This document shows, in pieces, positions 4,667 to 64,000 of a stretch of 64,000 nt of DNA. Position numbers and translations under genes: made by a program. Numbering within the stretch: the first letter of the stretch is position 1; every line of letters starts with the position of its first letter. The notes beneath the pieces are model-generated. The model had not been told where the DNA came from and searched no databases. It saw nothing but the letters and a program-made list of their open reading frames with translations. This DNA is from Ignavibacteriota bacterium (GTDB lineage Bacteria; Bacteroidota; Ignavibacteria; UBA10030; UBA6906). The DNA is taken from contig CAVVIT010000004.1 in assembly GCA_963748405.1 (NCBI GenBank), positions 84,171 through 148,170 of the forward strand, read 5' to 3'.

Positions 4667-5886
4667 ACGTCCTGATGATGTTTCCTTACGCGCCGCAGCC
4701 TCCGCCGAACGATCTGGGAGGGATGAAACGGAACATCCCGTTCTTCGCCCAGGCGGCGAAGCGGCACGCGGTGACCGTTCTCGCCTACGGGTCGCCGGAA
4801 GAGGAGAAGGTGTTCCGCGGGGCGTACGGGGCGCGGTGCGCCGCGGTGAGGTTCGTGGACAGGCGGCGGCCCCGGGTCATCAACGGCATCGAGGCCCTCT
4901 GGCTCCTGCTGACGTGGCGGAGCAACTACCGCCAGGTCTACCGGACGTCGATGCAGAAGGCGCTCGACGGCCTCTGCGCGCACACCCGCTTTGACGTCAT
5001 CCACACGTGCACGCAGATGTTCGGCTACTTCCGGTTTCCCGAAGGGGTGCCCGTCGTGACCGACACCCACGAGGTGGAATACGACCTCGCGCAGCGGACG
5101 TACCGCAAGACGAAGAACCTGTTCTGGAAGTTCTTCACGTACCTCTCCTACAGGGTGGGGCGGCGCGAGGAGATCGAGAACTGCGCGAAGTTTGACGCGC
5201 TCATCGCGACCACGGAACGCGACGCGGAGATATTCCGCCGTGACGTTCCCACCCAGCGCGTGGTCGTGATACAGAACGGGGTGGACCCGTCGTTCTACGA
5301 CGCCCCGGGCGTCCCCCGCGAACGGGGTGCCCTCGTGTTCACGGGGATGATGAGTTTCTACCCGAACGCCCACGGAATCACATGGTTCATCGACGAGGTG
5401 TTTCCCCTCGTCCTTGAGGCCGTCCCGGGCGCCCGGTTATACGTCGTCGGGAAGGATCCTCCCCGGGAGGTCGTGGAGCGGGCCTCGGACCGGGTGACCG
5501 TCACCGGGTTTGTCGACGACGTCAGGCCGTACATGGCGCGCGGCGAGATTTTCATCATCCCCCTCCACATCGGGGGGGGGATCCGAGGGAAGGCCCTCGA
5601 GGCGATGGCGATGAATCTGCCGATCGTCACGACGACGATCGGCTGCGAAGGAATTCACCTGAAAGACGGCGTCTCCTCGCTGTTCGCGGACACGCCGGCG
5701 GCATTCGCGGGAGCCGTCACGAGGCTCCTCGGGGACGGGAATCTCCGGGCACGCATCTCCGCAAGCGCGCTTTCCACCGTGCGCACGCTCTACGACTGGG
5801 ATGCGAAAGGGGAAGCCCTTGATGAGCTGTACCGTTCCGTTGCATATCATGATGTCACTCCTCCGAAAAAGAAAGAGAAACCATGA
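4663..5886 (+). CDS. glycosyltransferase family 1 (GT4-like)
   Basis: GGGIRGKALEAMAMNLPIVTTTIGCEGI E-x7-E-like motif and two Rossmann-like halves. Start ATG 4663 forms an ATGA overlap with the GT9 stop. The long upstream extension of ORF 3763..5886 is Arg/Pro-rich junk. Confidence 0.8.
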   Translation: MNVLMMFPYAPQPPPNDLGGMKRNIPFFAQAAKRHAVTVLAYGSPEEEKVFRGAYGARCAAVRFVDRRRPRVINGIEALWLLLTWRSNYRQVYRTSMQKALDGLCAHTRFDVIHTCTQMFGYFRFPEGVPVVTDTHEVEYDLAQRTYRKTKNLFWKFFTYLSYRVGRREEIENCAKFDALIATTERDAEIFRRDVPTQRVVVIQNGVDPSFYDAPGVPRERGALVFTGMMSFYPNAHGITWFIDEVFPLVLEAVPGARLYVVGKDPPREVVERASDRVTVTGFVDDVRPYMARGEIFIIPLHIGGGIRGKALEAMAMNLPIVTTTIGCEGIHLKDGVSSLFADTPAAFAGAVTRLLGDGNLRARISASALSTVRTLYDWDAKGEALDELYRSVAYHDVTPPKKKEKP

Positions 5887-6917
5887 CCAAGAATCCACAG
5901 GCACCATCATCCGCACCGCCTTCCCTCGCCCTTGTGGGCTGCGGGGCGATCGCAGATTCATTCTACCTCCCGGCCCTCGCGCACCATCCGGACGTGGCCG
6001 CCCGGATGGTGATCGTCGACCCGGACAGGAAGCGCGCGGAAGCCGCACGGGAGAAATACCGCTGCGCTTCGGTGGCCTCCGACTACCGCGAGGTGATCGG
6101 CGGGGTGCGGGGCGCGATCATCGCCGTCCCCCACCACCTCCATCACAGCATGTCGGGCGATTTCCTTGACGCCGGGGTGCACGTGCTCTGCGAAAAACCG
6201 ATCGCCGAAACCGCGGGCGAGGTCAGGGACCTGATCGCCCGGGCGGAACGGAAGGGAGTGACGATCGGCGTCAACAACACGCGGCGGCTCTATCCGTCAG
6301 CGATCAAAGTGAAGGAGCTCCTCGACGCCGGCGCGATCGGCGCCGTGCGCTCGATCGTCTATCTCGACGGCTCGGAGTTCGACTGGCCGACGGCGTCCGG
6401 ATTCTATTTCAACTCGGGCGCCTCCGCAAAGGGGATACTGCTCGACATCGGCGCGCACGTCGTGGACCTGGTCTGCTGGTGGCTGAAGGGGAAGCCGGAA
6501 GTCACGTCGTCGGAGAACGACTCGTTCGGCGGGACGGAGGCGGTTGCCTCGGTGAAGTTCACGCTCGGGGGCTGCACCGGCGAAATCCGGCTGAGCCGCC
6601 TGGCGAAGCTCTCCAACACGTACACGATCACGGGCGAGCGGGGAGTGATCGAAGGGGGAGCGTACGAAGGGGGGCGGATTTCGCTCACGGACGCGTCGGG
6701 GAAGAAGACCGACATCGCGTGTCACCCTCCCGCGGGGAGGCCGCCCGATTCATCGCGGGCGCTCGTCGACAATTTCCTGGGCGTCATCGAGGGGAAAGCC
6801 CGGCCGCTCATTCCGGCCGCGGAAGTCATCGACTCCATTGAAATGATCGGGCAGGCATATGAACGCGCAACGCGGTTCCCGATGCCGTGGTACGCGCGCG
6901 AGGAGGTGAACGCATGA
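5883..6917 (+). CDS. Gfo/Idh/MocA family NAD(P)-dependent oxidoreductase
   Basis: LALVGCGAIADSFYLPAL Rossmann N-terminus and the VLCEKPIA EKP motif typical of the Gfo/Idh/MocA family. Confidence 0.8.
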   Translation: MTKNPQAPSSAPPSLALVGCGAIADSFYLPALAHHPDVAARMVIVDPDRKRAEAAREKYRCASVASDYREVIGGVRGAIIAVPHHLHHSMSGDFLDAGVHVLCEKPIAETAGEVRDLIARAERKGVTIGVNNTRRLYPSAIKVKELLDAGAIGAVRSIVYLDGSEFDWPTASGFYFNSGASAKGILLDIGAHVVDLVCWWLKGKPEVTSSENDSFGGTEAVASVKFTLGGCTGEIRLSRLAKLSNTYTITGERGVIEGGAYEGGRISLTDASGKKTDIACHPPAGRPPDSSRALVDNFLGVIEGKARPLIPAAEVIDSIEMIGQAYERATRFPMPWYAREEVNA

Positions 6918-9581: not shown

Positions 9582-10517
9582 ATGACCACACAGACACGCG
9601 CCGGCGCGGCCGGGAAGAAATTGAACCTGCACGCGGGCGATCTCGTCCAGGTGAAGAGCTACGAGGAAATCCGCGCGATGCTCGATGCCGACGGAACGTA
9701 CGCGGGTCTCCCGTTCATGCCGGAGATGAGGAAATTCTGCGGGAGAACGGTCCGCGTCGCAAAACGCGCGAACCGGTTCTGCTACGAAGGCTCCCGGATG
9801 AGGATCATGAGCGACACCGTCTTCCTTGAAGGGATGCGGTGCGACGGGGAAGCGCACGACGGCTGCGACAAGGCCTGCATGGTATTCTGGAACGAGGATC
9901 TCCTCCGGCGCGCGGAGGGAGAGCCGACGAACGACCCCTACCCGCCCGAGTCCGCGCTCCCGCCGGCAAAGGACTGGGTGACGAAGGAGGGGGACAGGTA
10001 TTTCTGCCAGTCGTCGCAGCTCGTGAACGCGACGAAGGACTGGCGGCATTCCGATTTCAAGCCGTTCATCGAGGACGTGACGAGCGGGAACATGACCGTG
10101 TGGGAGCTCACGAAAGCCCTCTGGATCACGTTCGCCCGGATGTTCGGGACGCGCTCTTACCTGAAGGTCTGCGGCGACCTCTTCGGCGTCCTTTCGAAGA
10201 CGCCCGGGGTCAGCCTGGGGCTCGAGCCGGGTGACTGGGTCCAGGTCAAGAGCGCCGAAGAGATCATGGCGACGCTCGACAAGGCCGGGCGCAACCGGGG
10301 GATGCAGTTCGCCCCGGAGATGCTGGAGCACTGCGGGAAGAAGTACCAGGTGCTGCACCGCGTCGAGAAGATCATCCTCGAGCGGTCGGGCATGATGCAG
10401 AATCTCAAGGACACGGTGATACTGAAAAACGTCGGGTGCGGCGGCGCCTGCCGCAAGGGGTGCCCGCGCGACACGTACCCGTTCTGGCGCGAGGCGTGGC
10501 TGACCCGCATTCCCTGA
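9582..10517 (+). CDS. hypothetical protein with two tandem homologous Cys-containing domains (unknown function)
   Basis: Residues ~17-110 and ~215-311 align clearly: GDLVQVKSYEEIRAMLDADG...PFMPEM..FCG versus GDWVQVKSAEEIMATLDKAG...QFAPEM..HCG. I do not recognise a family. The coding frame is clean and in operon context. Confidence 0.55.
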   Translation: MTTQTRAGAAGKKLNLHAGDLVQVKSYEEIRAMLDADGTYAGLPFMPEMRKFCGRTVRVAKRANRFCYEGSRMRIMSDTVFLEGMRCDGEAHDGCDKACMVFWNEDLLRRAEGEPTNDPYPPESALPPAKDWVTKEGDRYFCQSSQLVNATKDWRHSDFKPFIEDVTSGNMTVWELTKALWITFARMFGTRSYLKVCGDLFGVLSKTPGVSLGLEPGDWVQVKSAEEIMATLDKAGRNRGMQFAPEMLEHCGKKYQVLHRVEKIILERSGMMQNLKDTVILKNVGCGGACRKGCPRDTYPFWREAWLTRIP

Positions 10518-56760: not shown

Positions 56761-56793
56761 CGAGGGGGGCTCAGATGAGCCCCCCGGCTTTTG

Positions 56794-56867
56794 TGCGCCT
56801 GGAGGGATTTGAACCCCCAACCCTCAGATCCGAAGTCTGATGCTCTATCCAGTTGAGCTACAGGCGC
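56794..56867 (-). tRNA. tRNA-Arg (anticodon TCG)
   Basis: The reverse complement GCGCCTGTAGCTCAACTGGATAGAGCATCAGACTTCGGATCTGAGGGTTGGGGGTTCAAATCCCTCCAGGCGCA folds as a cloverleaf: acceptor 7 bp, D-stem GCTC/GAGC, anticodon stem TCAGA/TCTGA with loop CTTCGGA (U33, anticodon TCG, purine at position 37), T-loop TTCAAAT. No encoded CCA. Confidence 0.85.
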
Positions 56868-57528: not shown

Positions 57529-57554
57529 AGGGGTTACTTGGGCTTTTATTGTTT

Positions 57555-57583
57555 AATATAGTTTTTTTATTTGACTTTATCAA
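57555..57583 (-). promoter_or_regulatory. sigma70-like promoter for the repressor gene (-35 TTGATA, 17-nt spacer, -10 TATATT on minus strand)
   Basis: The reverse complement of the plus-strand sequence reads TTGATAaagtcaaataaaaaaacTATATT. It lies ~25 nt upstream of the repressor ATG at 57528 and overlaps the rightward promoter P1. Confidence 0.5.
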
Positions 57584-57599
57584 TGGAATTGCATATAGT
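57571..57599 (+). promoter_or_regulatory. sigma70-like promoter P1 (TTGACT, 17-nt spacer, TATAGT), rightward
   Basis: Seen in sequence: TTGACTttatcaatggaattgcaTATAGT. It is followed by the 12-bp palindrome ACGGGATCCCGT at 57610-57621, a candidate operator. Confidence 0.5.
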
Positions 57600-57630
57600 A
57601 GACTTGGGGACGGGATCCCGTTGAAACCCC

Positions 57631-57659
57631 TTGACAGAGAGCCTGATTTTGAATAGAAT
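57631..57659 (+). promoter_or_regulatory. sigma70-like promoter P2 (TTGACA, 17-nt spacer, TAGAAT), rightward
   Basis: Seen in sequence: TTGACAgagagcctgattttgaaTAGAAT, ~150 nt upstream of the gene at 57809. Confidence 0.5.
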
Positions 57660-57808
57660 AGGGTAGGGGTCATTCGATCCCCCCAGCCTTCCGAAAAATG
57701 ATCGGTCGGCACGTGGAGTTGGATGAAGAGATGGATGCTGACGATGGTCATCGATTGACGTACCCGCCTTTTCTACCCAATCCCTAAGAAGCCAAAGGAA
57801 CAAGAATC

Positions 57809-58078
57809 ATGAAGCATTTTCTCACTAAAGATCTATATCTATCCAGCTACCTCGCTTCTTCAGGTTGCCCGCTGGAGTCGCACAACCGAGTTGACGGAAT
57901 AACGATGTTCTCCTTCCTCCGCACTCGCGAGCTGGAGATGCTCGTTGAATCGTACTTCTCATTGAAGGCATCCGTAAATCCGATAAAGTATGATGAAGCC
58001 ATGAGGAACCTACGAACCCTGGCAATCGGTCCCAAGTCTCGACACGAAAATACTCTATCCAGCCGGGTGGCTGTGTGA
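57809..58078 (+). CDS. hypothetical small protein (89 aa) of the mobile element, first gene of the rightward operon
   Basis: AAGGAA RBS 6 nt before ATG. Low-GC codon usage consistent with neighbouring island genes. No recognisable family (positionally Cro/excisionase-like). Confidence 0.5.
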   Translation: MKHFLTKDLYLSSYLASSGCPLESHNRVDGITMFSFLRTRELEMLVESYFSLKASVNPIKYDEAMRNLRTLAIGPKSRHENTLSSRVAV

Positions 58079-58153: not shown

Positions 58154-60286
58154 ATGTTAAATGATGAAGATGTAAAACAAACTGACGCATCTGTTTCTGC
58201 GACACCCAATGACCAGGCACCGCCTGGGATCCTCGATTCAATCCTCGTTTCATATTCTGAACGCGTTACAGAACCGCAGACCACGCGCGTAACACTTGGT
58301 TCGATACTTACTGAGATTCAATCATCACCGGATCTTCAGCACAAGATTGCCGCTGTCCGTAGCCTTTCCGAACCTAAAGAACGGCAGGATCTGAAGAGGA
58401 AGACCCTCCCGTGGTTTTCGATGGCCGAGTACAAGAACAACCATCGGGACAACCTCTCCTTTCTATCGACGAAATATGTCATCCTCGATCCAGATCACAT
58501 CGCTGGACACCTCAGTGACCTGCTGGTCAAGGTCAGAACCGATCCAAAAATCTTTGTTGCCTTCGTCTCTCCATCGGGAGATGGGCTCAAATTGATTGTC
58601 GAGCTCGAGAATGCCGTGACCGCCGCAGAGGACTTCCGGGGGGCGTTCGGCTACCTTCGGGACATCATCGAGAAGGAATACGGAATTGCTATCGATGGGG
58701 ACGACGACCCTGCCCGAGCGTGCTATCTGTCATATGATCCTGAGCTATGGGTCAATCTGAACAGAAAAGCCATGCAAATACCCACGGTAACAAAGGTGGA
58801 TTCGTTACAGGTTAGGATTGATCTCTCTCGCACATCGTCGATGCTGGAAGCTCTTTCCGGTTCAACGTCACCTGGGCGAACCCATAAGGCAACGCAAATC
58901 ATTGGGCGTTTCATCGAGAGAGGAATCCGACTGGATGAGGCCATGGAATTGGTAAGGATCTGGGACCAGTCGAAGAATACCCCTCCTCTTGGGGAGCAGA
59001 AGATTGCGTCGACCGTGCGAGACATGTATAAGCGGTACAATGACGGAGGGTTCGCGCAAAAGCTGGATCGTTTCTACTCCTACCGGAGCGATATCTACGA
59101 TGTCGGAATCGTCGGAGAGAACTTCTTTCTGGAGAATGTCGGACAGAGAAAGTTCTTTATCCAGACAGATGCCGCGGATGTTGAGACGCAGAAGCGGTTC
59201 CTGGAACATGTTGTGAAGGAGAAACACATACGCCACCTACAGCGAATCGATCATCTCGGGGACATGAATGCCGAGAAATCTGTCGTTGAATACGTCTCCG
59301 ACAAGGGTCTCTTTGAAGTGCACTATTCGCCTGTCGCGGTAAGGGTCAGGGGCAACGATTTCGTTGAAACCTGGCTGTCGTCAACTTTTGGAATCCATAA
59401 GGATTTCATCAAGGAGTGGCTCGCGATGTACTGCTACACGAATTACCGCAAGCTCCCGACATTGGTTCTGAAAGGTGATCGTGGAACCGGAAAGAACACA
59501 TTTGCGGAGTCAGTCCTCTCCATCTTTCCATCGATATCTCAGTTCTGGCACGGGGAAGAGAAGGGCTTTACCCCCGAAGTGCAAAAGAAATTGCTCATTG
59601 CAGATGAGTCGGTTTCGGCTAATGAAAAGCAATACCGAATGCTGAAGCAGAGATCGGGCCAGAAGATGTCAGTCGTCAATCAGAAATTCCTCCCGGAGTA
59701 CCAGGTCCTCAACAACATGAACATCATCATCATGTCGAACGAACACACGCCGATATTCGTGCAGAAGGACGAGGAGCCCACGAGCGTGAAAAACAACCAG
59801 TTCTTCGTCTACACGTTGCCGAAGCTGGAAGGGGAGATTGACCCTGATTTCGGCCAAAAAATCGAAGATAGGATGGGGCACTATGTAAGGACGGAACTAA
59901 GGAATGTCTACATGAAGGCTCAGGCATATGCCGGTTGTCGGTACTCCATACCGACGCCCATCACGGATGACGAGAAGGCTCTCTTCAACGTGAACATGAC
60001 TGGGCTGGAAGCCGAAGGCATGAAATTCCTCCAGAAAATGGTGGAGGCGAGCGGTTCGGCCTATACGAGTTTCTTCGAGAATGGGCTGTTCCCATCGTCA
60101 TTCATCGATGCCTTTACGATCTCAAAGGGCTACACGAAGAATGGAGTTATCCGAAACCTTAAGGAGAAGGATTACCTGGTGCCTGCCGATCCAGCCAGGA
60201 AAATGGTCAAAGGGGAGAGGCAATACTGCTACCAGATGACCGACAAACTGAAATCGTGGTACGAAAACCAGAAGCTTGCCCAGTGA
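58154..60286 (+). CDS. replication protein: N-terminal primase-polymerase (AEP/VirE_N, BT4734-like) domain fused to a C-terminal D5/P4-type SF3-helicase-like P-loop NTPase
   Basis: N-terminus: YVILDPDH (DxD), FVSPSGDGLKLIV (sGxGxH/K-type motif), ACYLSYDPE (third acidic motif) are archaeo-eukaryotic primase-like. C-terminus: VLKGDRGTGKNTFAES (Walker A variant) and KKLLIADES (Walker B), with the domain organisation of phage/plasmid primase-helicases. Confidence 0.7.
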   Translation: MLNDEDVKQTDASVSATPNDQAPPGILDSILVSYSERVTEPQTTRVTLGSILTEIQSSPDLQHKIAAVRSLSEPKERQDLKRKTLPWFSMAEYKNNHRDNLSFLSTKYVILDPDHIAGHLSDLLVKVRTDPKIFVAFVSPSGDGLKLIVELENAVTAAEDFRGAFGYLRDIIEKEYGIAIDGDDDPARACYLSYDPELWVNLNRKAMQIPTVTKVDSLQVRIDLSRTSSMLEALSGSTSPGRTHKATQIIGRFIERGIRLDEAMELVRIWDQSKNTPPLGEQKIASTVRDMYKRYNDGGFAQKLDRFYSYRSDIYDVGIVGENFFLENVGQRKFFIQTDAADVETQKRFLEHVVKEKHIRHLQRIDHLGDMNAEKSVVEYVSDKGLFEVHYSPVAVRVRGNDFVETWLSSTFGIHKDFIKEWLAMYCYTNYRKLPTLVLKGDRGTGKNTFAESVLSIFPSISQFWHGEEKGFTPEVQKKLLIADESVSANEKQYRMLKQRSGQKMSVVNQKFLPEYQVLNNMNIIIMSNEHTPIFVQKDEEPTSVKNNQFFVYTLPKLEGEIDPDFGQKIEDRMGHYVRTELRNVYMKAQAYAGCRYSIPTPITDDEKALFNVNMTGLEAEGMKFLQKMVEASGSAYTSFFENGLFPSSFIDAFTISKGYTKNGVIRNLKEKDYLVPADPARKMVKGERQYCYQMTDKLKSWYENQKLAQ

Positions 60287-60292
60287 GGAGAC

Positions 60293-60501
60293 GCATTGCC
60301 CATCGATTGCCTGTAGTTGGGCAATCCTTGGGCAGTGTTTTGAGTAGGAATAGCAATGCTTTTCATATGATTTGCCCATTTACCTGTAAGAGATTCAGTT
60401 AGAGAAAGAAAAGAAAGTGGTGAAAGAGAATATAGCGTTGAACCTTCAGCGCACGGGGTATAGGTGAAAATTGAAAATGGGCAGGCAAATGGGCAATTGC
60501 G
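60293..60501. repeat. iteron-like array: at least 6 copies of TGGGCA(A/G)/TGCCCA in both orientations, with an adjacent AT-rich tract (putative replication origin)
   Basis: Seen in sequence: ATTGCCCA (60295), TTGGGCAAT (60317), TTGGGCAG (60328), TTTGCCCAT (60371), AATGGGCAG (60476), AATGGGCAATTGC (60487), then an AT-rich tract at 60570-60600. A further copy CTTGGGCAATTG lies at 61181. Confidence 0.5.
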
Positions 60502-60847
60502 AGGCCAAAAACAAAAAGATAAAAGCCCAAAAGCCTGAACGACGGGGGGAGGGGCTTTCCGCGAAGCAGATCTTTTCTTTTAGTTTTTATTTTGGATCCG
60601 CCCGCTGGCTCGCGTTATTCGGAGAAGATTAGAAAGCACTCTCCCTCTGTGGTGGATCTCGGGGATAATATGTCGAAATCCGGTCAATCTGAAGCCGATT
60701 CAGGGAAAAGGTGACGGCAACACAAGAAAAATAAACAGGGCGCTCGGTAACGACCACAGTTCCGGAAAAGACTCGGGCCAGTGAAAACGTATCACCATCT
60801 TCAGGATGAACGGCTCGAGACTCGAAGACATTACAAAGGAGAGCTAT

Positions 60848-61024
60848 ATGACAACTGAGAAAGCACAGAAGATCCTCAACGCCATCAAGAAACGAGACCG
60901 TCTCGCCAGCAAGCACTGGACCCCCTACCAAGGTCCAGCGGATTGGGACTTCATTGTACTGAACTCATCAAAAGAGGAACTGGAAGAAGGGAAGGAGGAG
61001 AAGTCGGAGGTCAGCAATGGATGA
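60848..61024 (+). CDS. hypothetical small protein (58 aa)
   Basis: AAGGAGAG RBS 5 nt upstream of ATG 60848 (MTTEKAQKILNAIKK...). The longer ORF from 60806 lacks an RBS. Confidence 0.35.
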   Translation: MTTEKAQKILNAIKKRDRLASKHWTPYQGPADWDFIVLNSSKEELEEGKEEKSEVSNG

Positions 61025-61193
61025 GGATATGCTGGCTCGGATGAATGACAATCAGAACAGGGACCGCATTCTCGAAGATCTCAACCGCTCAACTCTGGAC
61101 GACGTCGGGCCGGTGGGCAAAACGCAGGCGGCAAAAATGCTGCAGGAGATGAACAATCTCTCAAGTGAGGAGTCCCGACTCTTGGGCAATTGA
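61017..61193 (+). CDS. hypothetical small protein (58 aa)
   Basis: ATG overlaps the upstream stop (ATGGATGA), which suggests coupling. MDEDMLARMNDNQNRDRILEDL... Followed by the terminator hairpin. Under 60 aa, so not in the ORF track. Confidence 0.3.
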   Translation: MDEDMLARMNDNQNRDRILEDLNRSTLDDVGPVGKTQAAKMLQEMNNLSSEESRLLGN

Positions 61194-61198
61194 AAAGC

Positions 61199-61235
61199 CG
61201 TCCCAATTTCTTGGCCGTTGGGACTTTGTAATCCC
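61199..61235 (+). terminator. rho-independent terminator-like hairpin GTCCCAA(n11)TTGGGAC + TTTGT
   Basis: Seen in sequence immediately after the stop at 61193: ccGTCCCAAtttcttggccgTTGGGACtttgtaat. Confidence 0.5.
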
Positions 61236-61688
61236 CCCTCAAAGAATTCCCGAGAATTACCGTGGTTGACAGATTTGCTGCTCGAAAATCTCGGTTGAGA
61301 ATTCTCCAAAATCTCGATCCCTGGGGTATATATGATGAAGGTGCCATTCCTGCGAAACATCAAAATATACTTGCGATAAAGGCAAATGAGTGACTTGACA
61401 CGAAAGTTGCAGACAATAGGAAGAAATTCGTCAGGTTCTGGCGTAGACTTCTCGGGACTGACAGATTTTATTAGGTTTGCGAATCGCGGATCAAGGGGAT
61501 ATATTAGGTGACATTGATAGCCGCCTCGTTTGATTGCATCGTATCTGATCGATGATAACTAAGTCCTGTTTGCTCAGCCGAATGGCCAGTTGAGCGATTG
61601 GATCCGATGCAGCGAGTCAATCCTCGCTATTCCGTTCTTACACCCTTCATCTGTTTTTCACAATTCCTCTCTGACTCGGAGTTGGATC

Positions 61689-63185
61689 ATGCGAACAAAC
61701 ATCGCGGTAGTGTTTCTCTTGTTCTCATTCTTCGAAAGTTTTGTGACGTTGTTGTCTCCAGCCGAATGCAACGCGCAAGTGATCGTCAAAGAACGCGTCT
61801 CAATATTCCCAGACATTGTGACGGGCTCATATCGGAAGAATCCACGGGACACGCCTCCAAATCTGTTTATCGTTGCCCCAAGATCGGGTCTCATGCAGTT
61901 TGAAATTTCATACGGCTGGAAACTCAACTCGGCGATTCCATCCTCTGCCACTTTTAGGGTTGCCCTTCCTGAGACGACTTATACCACAACCGTCACCGAC
62001 TTCTTCAACCGATTTACGAGCTTCCCGGTTTATAACACGAACATCTGCCAAAGTCCGCCGACGTCAAACAACTATGTCAGGTTCTCTGACATGCGAAACA
62101 CGCCATATCCATTCAAGCTGCTCTTTATCAGGGTCCCTCGGCCAGGTGATACATTGCGATTTACGTTGCACGATGGAGCAGATATTCCCAGCACGACCCT
62201 CAGCGGCGACTCGTCAACTGGTTGGACTGTCTTCAATTCGATAGACCCGCCCAATGTGCAATGCTGGTCGTCACCGGACAACCAAGAGGCAACCAGTGCC
62301 GTATTGAAATTCGCAGATACTGCAATCGCCGGTTTCCGCGTGAAAGGAGATTATGACACCGTTTTCTACGGTCATGCTACCCCAGTTAGGGTGACTGCCA
62401 TTAACAGCGCAGGTAATGAAGTCTATTACAGCGCTTCAAATCAGATTTCCCTATCCTATACTCCTACGATATACGGCAGATTCATTAACGCAGCTTGGGA
62501 CACAGTCGCCTCCCCGATAACCCAGAATTATTCTGATGCAAGAAATGGAAAAGTGTGGTATGTTTCTGATCCTGGTAGGCTCTCGGATTCTGTTCACCCA
62601 ATTACATTGACAGCGAAGAACATACAGGACACTTCGAAGCATGGGACGGGTACGGTCACAATAAAGAACGAATGGACTATATTTAACCAATGGAATACGC
62701 TTTGGAGGGACAGCGCTTATGATTTTGAACCAGGCGCTACTATCTGGGGTAAAGGTTGTGCTCTGACGTGTTTTGCTATGATTTTGAAGAGATATGGTTA
62801 CAACGTCACCCCTGGTACTCTTAATTCATGGATGAAAAATAGTGATCACTTAGGGTTCGACCCAGGGGGAAATGTTCATTGGGTAGTTCCGGAAGAGTAT
62901 TCAGGTGGAGTGTCACTTGCATTCATGGGCCTAGTGGCGAACCCAAACGGCTCACCATTAAGCCTCTCGGTAATAGATAATTGCCCAGAGCCTAATTGGT
63001 CGCTCATGGCACAGGTTGATGATGGAGCTTCGACTCACTATATCATCATCGTCGGAAAGAATCTTGCTGGTGAATACGTGACATTAGACCCCATCTATTC
63101 CACGCCGAGGACACTTGTCGATTACGGTACGCCAGCTTACCCTCATGGCCGAATTCGTAAACTGATTAAGTACTGGAAGAACTGA
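61689..63185 (+). CDS. secreted protein with C-terminal papain-like (C39-like) cysteine peptidase signature
   Basis: Signal peptide MRTNIAVVFLLFSFFESFVTLLSPAECNA. C-terminal GKGCALTCFAMILKRYGY (candidate nucleophile Cys in a G-x-C-[AG]-x-[TA]-x2-A-M-[IV]-L context) and downstream THYIIIVG (candidate His). GGAG RBS. The TTG-start ORF from 61590 is rejected in favour of ATG 61689. Confidence 0.5.
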   Translation: MRTNIAVVFLLFSFFESFVTLLSPAECNAQVIVKERVSIFPDIVTGSYRKNPRDTPPNLFIVAPRSGLMQFEISYGWKLNSAIPSSATFRVALPETTYTTTVTDFFNRFTSFPVYNTNICQSPPTSNNYVRFSDMRNTPYPFKLLFIRVPRPGDTLRFTLHDGADIPSTTLSGDSSTGWTVFNSIDPPNVQCWSSPDNQEATSAVLKFADTAIAGFRVKGDYDTVFYGHATPVRVTAINSAGNEVYYSASNQISLSYTPTIYGRFINAAWDTVASPITQNYSDARNGKVWYVSDPGRLSDSVHPITLTAKNIQDTSKHGTGTVTIKNEWTIFNQWNTLWRDSAYDFEPGATIWGKGCALTCFAMILKRYGYNVTPGTLNSWMKNSDHLGFDPGGNVHWVVPEEYSGGVSLAFMGLVANPNGSPLSLSVIDNCPEPNWSLMAQVDDGASTHYIIIVGKNLAGEYVTLDPIYSTPRTLVDYGTPAYPHGRIRKLIKYWKN

Positions 63186-63207
63186 AACCCCGAGAGAAGG
63201 AGAAAAG

Positions 63208-64000
63208 ATGAACTCCAAGTCAGTTTGTGGAAGATTTCTGGTCGGCCTCCTCGTGCTCGTTAGGCCGTTATCCGCCGTTATGGGTCAATCGTCGGGAATG
63301 GAAGTTCACTCCTCAATGAACATTCAATTCCTTGTAGTAGACCCGATTGGTCGAAAGACTGGCATAGACGGCCAGAGCAATACATTTTTTGGGGATATCC
63401 CGTCGTCCGTCTACGATACACTTTCAAGTGGTGACATCGATACATCAAAGCCAAATACATTGTCTCGCGAATGCATATTTGGGTGGGGTGCTGATTCTTT
63501 GATCCAAGGCAATTACTACATCAAGGTTTACGTCCTACAAAGCGGCAATTTCTGGATAGACAACGTTGTCACTCGGGTTCCGACTTTTTACCACCAAGCA
63601 GTCAACCACGTTGGGACCGCTGGTGATACATATCTGTACAGAATCCCATACAGCTACAATCCTACAAGCCCAATAACGCTTGACACTTTGACAACCACAA
63701 GAGAAGTGCAGGGTGGCATATTTAATCCAACAGGAACAAGTACATTGTCCATCAAAGTGAAGGCATCACAAAACCAAGGCACGCGGGACACCCTGACAGG
63801 AGGCACTGTGACGGTCCGTTGGCGGTCAAGGTATACGTTGTCTATAGGGACAGTCTCTTCGCCGACTTACGGCTTCTCCGCATTCGGGCCAGTTGATTCT
63901 CAGGGTAGCTATAAGTATCAGACGTTTCGGACAACAAACCACGTTCCTGTTGCTTGGACCGCTGGAACGGAGTATGAGATTCTTACTGTAAGCATAATTG
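63208..64000 (+). CDS. secreted hypothetical protein (3'-partial, runs off window)
   Basis: GAGAAGGAG RBS 8 nt before ATG. Signal-peptide-like MNSKSVCGRFLVGLLVLVRPLSAV. Open frame to the window end. Thr/Ser-rich, predicted beta-rich. Confidence 0.5.
   Translation, partial: MNSKSVCGRFLVGLLVLVRPLSAVMGQSSGMEVHSSMNIQFLVVDPIGRKTGIDGQSNTFFGDIPSSVYDTLSSGDIDTSKPNTLSRECIFGWGADSLIQGNYYIKVYVLQSGNFWIDNVVTRVPTFYHQAVNHVGTAGDTYLYRIPYSYNPTSPITLDTLTTTREVQGGIFNPTGTSTLSIKVKASQNQGTRDTLTGGTVTVRWRSRYTLSIGTVSSPTYGFSAFGPVDSQGSYKYQTFRTTNHVPVAWTAGTEYEILTVSII

Follow-up and report, generated by a model that had tools for sequence, protein, structure and literature searches.

The window considered here, a stretch of 64,000 nt from an Ignavibacteriota bacterium, raises the question of what is served by a 560-bp gap 3′ of a primase-helicase gene, a gap that houses an array of short repeats with the core TGGGCA. 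An earlier note, made from the letters of this DNA, had read the array as an iteron-type origin of replication, and this candidate is supported here by the conserved position of the repeats, their layout, and the covariation of their core across related loci. Judged by sequence comparison and structural modelling, positions 60275–60500, with flanks reaching to approximately 60600, are likely to be the vegetative replication origin of a mobile element, bound by the adjacent putative initiator. The design is very probably that of the self-loading-helicase origins of SaPI/PICI elements, a known origin type, here in an uncharacterised element family of FCB-group bacteria.

The GC content of the window is 61–65% up to approximately 56.9 kb, and approximately 48% from 57.0 kb to the window end. 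The low-GC segment from approximately 57.0 kb is very probably an integrative mobile element in a 61–65%-GC chromosome. The window end cuts through this island, of which approximately 7 kb are visible, and no integrase is visible in these 7 kb. The island lies on the 5′ side of a tRNA-Arg(TCG) gene (Table 1), the usual side being the 3′ side. The tRNA was the sole match in an Rfam scan of 56.5–64 kb at E ≤ 1.

A PICI-like phage satellite would comprise an integrase, a repressor/regulator pair, a replication module, and genes that hijack helper-phage packaging, for instance by a small terminase or capsid-size redirection. The island contains a repressor-like HTH gene, divergent promoters, and a replication module, and integrases are seen in relatives. 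The divergent promoter region contains three strong sigma-70-like matches in the promoter scan, one of them TTGACA-17-TAGAAT with 11 of 12 matches, and it resembles a lysogeny-type switch. A related locus, L002, encodes an HTH_26 gene at the position matching the HTH regulator. The label of phage satellite, which the earlier note had attached to the region, is unproven, as PHROGs and Pfam recognised neither packaging nor capsid-related genes in the island portion within the window. The DUF5659 gene is nearly always found immediately 5′ of the initiator gene and often overlaps the initiator start, which suggests translational coupling; a search for literature on DUF5659 found none. Beyond the array gap lie two small ORFs, followed by a gene for a secreted C39-like protein (61590–63185) with a signal-peptide-like start at Met 61689, whose C-terminal segment is Peptidase_C39-like. 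At locus L010, too, a gene for a C39 peptidase lies downstream of the replication module.

Table 1. Coordinates of the island features in the window, and the repeat layout in mapped related loci relative to the stop codon of the primase-helicase gene.
Feature	Position	Strand	Remarks
tRNA-Arg(TCG)	56793–56867	−	At host/island GC boundary (~61% to 48%)
HTH regulator, 142 aa	57100–57528	−	Divergently transcribed; from ORF list
Divergent promoter region between HTH regulator and DUF5659 gene	57529–57808		Promoter scan
DUF5659 gene	57809–58078	+	Pfam; small partner gene directly 5′ of putative initiator gene
Primase-helicase gene, 710 aa	58154–60286	+	ORF and Pfam
C-terminal winged-helix coding region	59966–60283	+	Residues ~605–710; proposed iteron-recognition domain
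Iteron cluster I	60275–60337	both	Palindromic arrangement: two leftward, then two rightward
Cluster I site TGCCCA	60277	−	Overlaps last codons L-A-Q-stop
Cluster I site ATTGCCCA	60295–60302		
Cluster I degenerate site ATTGCC	60306–60311		
Cluster I site TGGGCAAT	60318–60325		
Cluster I site TGGGCAGT	60329–60336		
Left arm TTTGCCCATTTACCTG	60371–60386	−	One exact iteron and a degenerate second unit; flanks AT-rich tract
AT/purine-rich central tract	60379–60477		Between inverted arms; proposed DNA-unwinding element
Right arm TGGGCA-GGCAAA-TGGGCAATTG	60478–60499	+	Two exact iterons 12 bp apart and an overlapping degenerate unit
Distal part	60505–60595		A-rich run 60505–60525, G-rich 60544–60554, T-rich run 60571–60595
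Weaker outlying copy GTGGGCAAA	61113–61121		
Outlying copy TTGGGCAAT	61182–61190	+	At stop codon of small ORF 61017–61193
Third outlying copy TGGGCAA(T)	62980–62987		
Layout in mapped loci: inverted cluster	At or near stop	−	Minus-orientation sites
Layout in mapped loci: site(s)	~+31 to +44 from stop	+	
Layout in mapped loci: site or pair	~+83 to +121 from stop	−	
Layout in mapped loci: AT-rich tract	Next ~60–100 bp		
Layout in mapped loci: pair	After AT-rich tract	+	

The primase-helicase contains Pfam hits to a BT4734-like AEP primase domain (residues 86–198), to PriCT_1 (residues 246–294, weak), and to DUF5906, the last within a DUF5906/D5-type SF3 helicase at residues ~400–590 that is followed by a C-terminal winged helix. 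Its AF2 model has a pLDDT of 83.5, and Foldseek matches in the PDB comprise the NrS-1 helicase region, ASFV PrimPol, MPXV E5/VACV D5, and the SaPI5 PriRep (7OLA). The catalytic DxD motif (D112, D114), the Walker A residue K447, and the Walker B residues D484/E485 are invariant in 32 homologs. The BT4734-like AEP family is listed as unassigned to any clade (PMC5862659). A scan of viral_contigs with the protein recovered no relatives, and the plasmid and phage collections returned only distant partial AEP-domain matches, with no characterised plasmid or phage there carrying such a module.

Exact copies of TGGGCA/TGCCCA are found at 60277(−), 60297(−), 60318(+), 60329(+), 60373(−), 60478(+), and 60490(+). 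The seven copies share the consensus aTGGGCAAt, in both orientations, within 60277–60495, and cluster I contains inverted repeat I2 (18 nt, 83%). The count of at least six copies after the stop at 60286 given in the earlier note holds, as six lie after the stop and one more overlaps the last codons, and the other elements it described were also located: the partial palindrome is GCAATTGC (60492–60499), in which the right arm ends, the further segments are the G-rich GGGGGGAGGGG (60544–60554) and the T-rich run (60571–60595), and the extra copy reported near 61181 is TTGGGCAAT. The first iteron, TTGCCCAG (60275–60286), extends over the final codons of the initiator gene and its stop (…L-A-Q-stop). 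Both this iteron and the -AQ C-terminus are kept in L002, L014, L005, and L006, and not in L009 or L015, an overlap through which the origin constrains the coding sequence, or vice versa.

Across the whole window TGGGCA occurs 25 times against 26.1 expected, with 7 of the 25 copies falling within 220 bp, so the signal lies in clustering and not in overall abundance. Dinucleotide shuffles of 60267–60620 (n = 5000) contained 0.34 copies on average and 4 at most. When the best count of any non-trivial hexamer was scored, no shuffle reached seven copies, whether of the 7-kb island (n = 300) or of the region (n = 1000); in the shuffled-sequence comparison that had been suggested for this array, clustering thus exceeds expectation in all 1300 look-elsewhere shuffles. 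Centre-to-centre distances of 20, 21, 11, 44, 105, and 12 bp correspond to near-integral helical turns, albeit in a small sample. No DnaA box within one mismatch is present in 60200–61300, and no tandem array was reported by TRF for the origin region. Further downstream, in 60621–64000, three copies of the 7-mer are observed against 0.39 expected (the 9-mer expectation is 0.027), and these outlying copies have no counterpart in the closest relatives, L002 and L014.

The array flanks the central tract (60379–60477) with five sites on its left and two on its right. On the right side both iterons are exact (+) copies, and the immediate left side contains one exact (−) copy and the degenerate TTTACCTG, with further (−) copies left of the tract at 60277 and 60297; clean opposed pairs are found, for example, in L019, L025, L028, and L030. 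A nearest-neighbour duplex stability profile places the least stable 40-mer of the region at 60378–60417, and among the 22 loci profiled, 12 have theirs at +89 to +108 from the stop. The tract is only approximately 65% AT in the window and more extreme in relatives, which speaks against the origin reading, as does the single exact iteron immediately to its left; among aligned loci its sequence and length vary while its A/T-richness is constant. Predicted stability makes approximately 60379–60477, between the inverted arms, the likeliest candidate for the unwinding element. This placement replaces the earlier proposal of the T-run at 60570–60600, since the better candidate between the arms holds the least stable 40-mer, while the T-run (60571–60595) is the second least stable segment and falls outside the opposed arms.

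The distal part of the gap (60505–60595), whose A/T arms form inverted repeats I4–I7, could be an auxiliary melting region, a terminator of the rep operon, or a promoter region for downstream genes. Its T-run, TTTTTATTTT, is kept in most TGGGCA-class relatives. Folded as RNA, the T-run region is no more stable than shuffles (z 0.17). A terminator formed by the GC-rich segment and the T-run was considered and rejected, given this fold score and the fact that the scan called no terminator.

Homologs of the protein at 82% to approximately 30% identity were collected and their genomic contexts fetched; a further 36 loci came from a scan of a genome collection, in MAGs assigned to Ignavibacteriota, Bacteroidota, Neomarinimicrobiota, Zixibacteria, Calditrichota, and KSB1. 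At approximately 40 loci, the 500 bp 3′ of the stop were searched, without a prior, for the hexamer with the strongest local enrichment. Most loci with usable downstream sequence have a locally enriched short repeat there, and approximately 30 are assignable to an iteron class. The cores differ by lineage (TGGGCA, TGGACA(C), CAGGCA(C), CAGCCA(C), GGCACC, GTGACA, and AGGACA), and the position and layout of the array are conserved in relatives from 82% down to approximately 31% protein identity. Whatever the core, the layout is broadly alike across the 21 mapped loci (Table 1), and tandem copies within them are mostly 9 bp apart. A constant layout combined with cores that change from lineage to lineage is what marks binding sites that co-evolve with a cognate protein.

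Closer relatives of the TGGGCA class, at 82–53% identity (n = 8), contain the array after the stop codon with sites in the same places. An alignment of eight TGGGCA-class loci (A3) has its invariant columns at the iterons, with divergent, indel-containing sequence in between. Invariant elements comprise ATTGCC, GGGCA, TTxCCxATTxACC in the left arm (8 of 8 loci), and the columns of cluster I, and the longest invariant block is GGCAA(A/T)TGGGCAAT in the right arm. A near-palindromic A/T box, approximately AAAGTTTTTCAAAAAC, lies 0–5 bp left of the right-hand pair in L025, L034, L036, L038, L041, L042, L045, and L006. The box is independent of iteron class; in the window (60467–60477), as in many of the other loci, it is degenerate and reduced to an A-run. 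A host factor might bind it, or priming might take place there; it was not retained in the core model since it is present in only a subset of loci.

Natural rearrangements of the module indicate which protein is paired with the array. In the proteins P0013, P0014, and P0019 the N-terminal half is unrelated, with DUF5906 as the only Pfam hit, and the helicase/C-terminal half is 61–74% identical over the shared region. TGGGCA arrays are kept at the two loci of this kind that were examined, those of P0014 (L009) and P0019 (L010, also recovered as L016), and also at L015, which matches only the C-terminal half of the protein. The DUF5659 gene is absent from six distant loci with intact upstream flanks (L033–L036, L038, and L045; HMM scan), all of which have arrays, and DUF5659 was therefore rejected as a necessary iteron binder. 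The array is also common to elements with a tyrosine (L002) and a serine (L003) recombinase. Because it persists across primase exchange, loss of DUF5659, and change of recombinase, its sole constant partner is the half of the protein containing the SF3 helicase and winged helix.

Class-variable residues are found in the alignment just before the putative recognition helix, a pattern that phylogeny confounds and that L008 breaks. Assigning specificity to particular winged-helix residues was abandoned on these grounds, as L008 keeps KGYTKNG yet uses CAGGCA/AGGCAAT. At the level of lineages, iteron class appears to covary with the winged helix, as expected for a co-evolving initiator, in a comparison that is phylogeny-confounded.

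The same pattern bears on a reading in which the repeats are transcriptional operators, bound by the winged helix, DUF5659, or an HTH protein, that autoregulate the rep operon or control downstream genes without any initiation. Both winged-helix and HTH proteins are encoded nearby, and the array lies between two co-oriented gene groups, with the conserved T-rich tract and then the next gene coming after it. Iteron-binding initiators of plasmids commonly autoregulate too, which counts in favour of operators. However, the array is situated at the 3′ end of the rep gene, approximately 2.2–2.7 kb from the only strong promoter-like sites (57555–57659), and it persists without DUF5659 and beside differing regulators and downstream genes. 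In addition, opposed arms around an AT tract, conserved over large distances, are the layout of an origin and not that of an operator. We therefore regard operators without initiation as improbable, while noting that operator and origin roles are compatible.

The origin reading gains its model from known systems, of which SaPI elements are the closest in design. SaPI origins are defined as 6–12 penta- or hexanucleotide iterons immediately downstream of rep with an AT-rich centre and at least two iterons per side in opposite directions, read by a self-loading SF3 helicase through its C-terminal winged helix (PMC9371898; PMC7581432). As in SaPI1, SaPIbov1, and SaPI5, the candidate origin is immediately 3′ of the putative initiator gene and contains opposed short iterons around an AT-rich centre. 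Two or more opposed iterons per side are matched only in part by the window itself, and by clean opposed pairs in relatives. In number, seven exact TGGGCA copies and at least two degenerate units are found in 60275–60499. The putative initiator also shows the SF3-type helicase with a C-terminal winged helix at fold level, with an AEP primase fused to it as in SaPI5, and the module again comes after a divergent repressor/regulator pair.

Differences from SaPI are equally clear. No homology to SaPI Reps can be detected from sequence, and structural alignments give 7–12% identity; the Pfam families are BT4734-like AEP (BT4734-like_N), PriCT_1, and DUF5906. Given this low identity and different Pfam content, the protein is an analogue or very distant relative and not a member of the SaPI Rep/PriRep family. 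The hosts are Ignavibacteriota/Bacteroidota-group bacteria and not Firmicutes, one iteron overlaps the last codons of the initiator, and helper-phage dependence and packaging genes are not evident in the island within the window.

Other replicons resemble the locus in part. SCCmec Cch2 has a putative origin with three 5-nt iterons and a separate primase (CCPol-MP), whereas here at least seven iterons form opposed sets and the primase is fused. The alpha protein of P4 is a primase-SF3 helicase with a C-terminal winged helix that reads short octamer iterons and has a distant second site, crr, but its primase is not BT4734-like, unlike that of the window protein. An equivalent of crr in the outlying copies at 61113–61121 and 61182–61190 is unsupported, as these are not conserved in the closest relatives. 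In pPS10, RK2, R6K, and F, initiator-site repeats likewise adjoin an AT-rich unwinding element and iteron/initiator specificity co-evolves. Those plasmids, however, have 17–22-bp direct repeats, a WH1-WH2 Rep without a helicase, DnaA boxes, and host DnaB loading, while the locus described here has 6–9-bp repeats in both orientations, no DnaA box, and a putative initiator that is itself the helicase, and so falls outside the class of classical iteron plasmids.

The most serious alternative comes from the Sulfolobus plasmid pRN1, in which a small regulator gene and ORF904, an AEP-SF3-winged-helix protein, are accompanied by an essential cis element within approximately 170 bp downstream (PMC4234260). 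By analogy, a large stem-loop or cruciform would be extruded from the inverted arms, and this structure would be recognised in place of the repeat units. The gene logic is shared with pRN1, where the structure, a 100-nt stem-loop, is conserved without its sequence (PMC4234260). In the window, the arms form inverted repeat I3 (60372–60386 versus 60482–60496), 15 nt with 93% complementarity at a distance of 95 nt, and when folded as ssDNA the region somewhat exceeds shuffles in stability (z −2.16; matched by 3 of 100 shuffles). Against this, the 6–9-nt repeat is also present as direct copies in tandem, a further cluster of it lies at the stop codon, and the arms of the other classes share 6–7-nt cores only, their spacers not being conserved beyond the first base (CTA versus CCG in L025, TTA/CAA versus TAG/CTC in L028, and CTA versus CAA in L030). 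A fully complementary stem-loop of approximately 100 nt, as in pRN1, is thus not what is found, the spacers being non-complementary in most classes. As the spacers are unlike and tandem and extra copies occur, discrete binding units fit better than a continuous stem, and recognition of a pRN1-type structure seems to us quite improbable.

A gap of this length that is non-coding and contains inverted repeats together with a T-run could also represent a cis-acting RNA element or terminator, or a site of recombination, packaging, or partition (an attP arm, pac/cos, or a parS-like site), and att and pac sites do occur on mobile islands. An RNA role is at odds with the Rfam and terminator scans and with the folding of the T-run given above. 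An attP arm was rejected because recombinase type varies while the array does not; the array, found with either recombinase type, always tracks the helicase gene. ParB, terminase, and capsid genes were not recognised in the island portion within the window (Pfam and PHROGs), and we consider this group of explanations very unlikely. That the cluster arose by chance, or from the composition of a low-GC intergenic region, is a reading for which only the unremarkable total of TGGGCA in the window speaks; it is refuted by clustering that shuffles never reproduced and by the same sites in eight independent TGGGCA-class loci.

For the preferred reading of the array as an origin, we propose a mechanism modelled on SaPI Rep/PriRep, SCCmec Cch2, and viral SF3 initiators. 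Upon induction, the primase-helicase of the element would be made, and its C-terminal winged-helix domain would bind the aTGGGCAAt iterons. The opposed iteron sets flanking 60379–60477 could then place two helicase hexamers face to face, the tract would melt, and the SF3 rings would self-load onto the single strands and unwind 3′ to 5′. The fused AEP primase domain would make the first primers, which a host polymerase would extend. Binding, melting, hexamer loading, and replication of the element itself are inferred from sequence patterns and the structural model.

More broadly, the loci may represent a previously undescribed family of integrative elements, possibly phage satellites, that are self-replicating and widespread in Ignavibacteriota, Bacteroidota, and other FCB-group bacteria, with a fixed SaPI-like architecture and at least six iteron classes, a possibility that we advance tentatively. 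If it is true, six incompatibility-like classes (TGGGCA, TGGACA, CAGGCA, CAGCCA, GGCACC, and GTGACA) would form a natural series for decoding how a winged-helix/SF3-helicase protein reads its origin, and the stop-overlapping iteron, together with the class-independent A/T box, would count as further control features, as yet uncharacterised. For annotation, the analysis supplies a candidate cis-acting origin and its likely initiator for an unstudied family of mobile islands, whose host phyla, those named above for the genome-collection scan, are environmentally abundant and mostly uncultured. The origin principle itself is already known and no new principle is involved; the SaPI-type design of a self-loading helicase with opposed short iterons would be extended beyond Firmicutes to a non-homologous primase-helicase family, which suggests a general solution for small mobile replicons. 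Lineage-specific cores on a fixed scaffold offer a comparative dataset for initiator/origin specificity, and the gene together with approximately 250 bp could supply orthogonal minimal replicons for genetic tools in Bacteroidota-group bacteria.

Individual loci contain further repeats and cargo beside the module. At L010 (the same element as L016), positions 10263–10460, just 3′ of the TGGGCA array, contain an unrelated repeat, CGGTAACA, 7–9 times in both orientations, which may be a binding array for another protein involved in partition or regulation. At L006, four TGGGCAA copies approximately 186 bp apart (~5728–6289; stop +1408, +1594, +1780, and +1969) lie inside the gene for a repeat-domain protein; this series is a coding repeat and not a set of iterons, a case against which origin scans based on motifs should guard. 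Defence or anti-defence cargo is encoded beside the replication module at L006 (401–1489), L007 (398–5988), L002 (6579–7448), L004 (1008–1775), and L012 (522–1142), comprising among these five loci an Apyc1-like anti-Pycsar gene of the metallo-β-lactamase fold, AbiEi/AbiEii, AbiGi, and SocA_Panacea.
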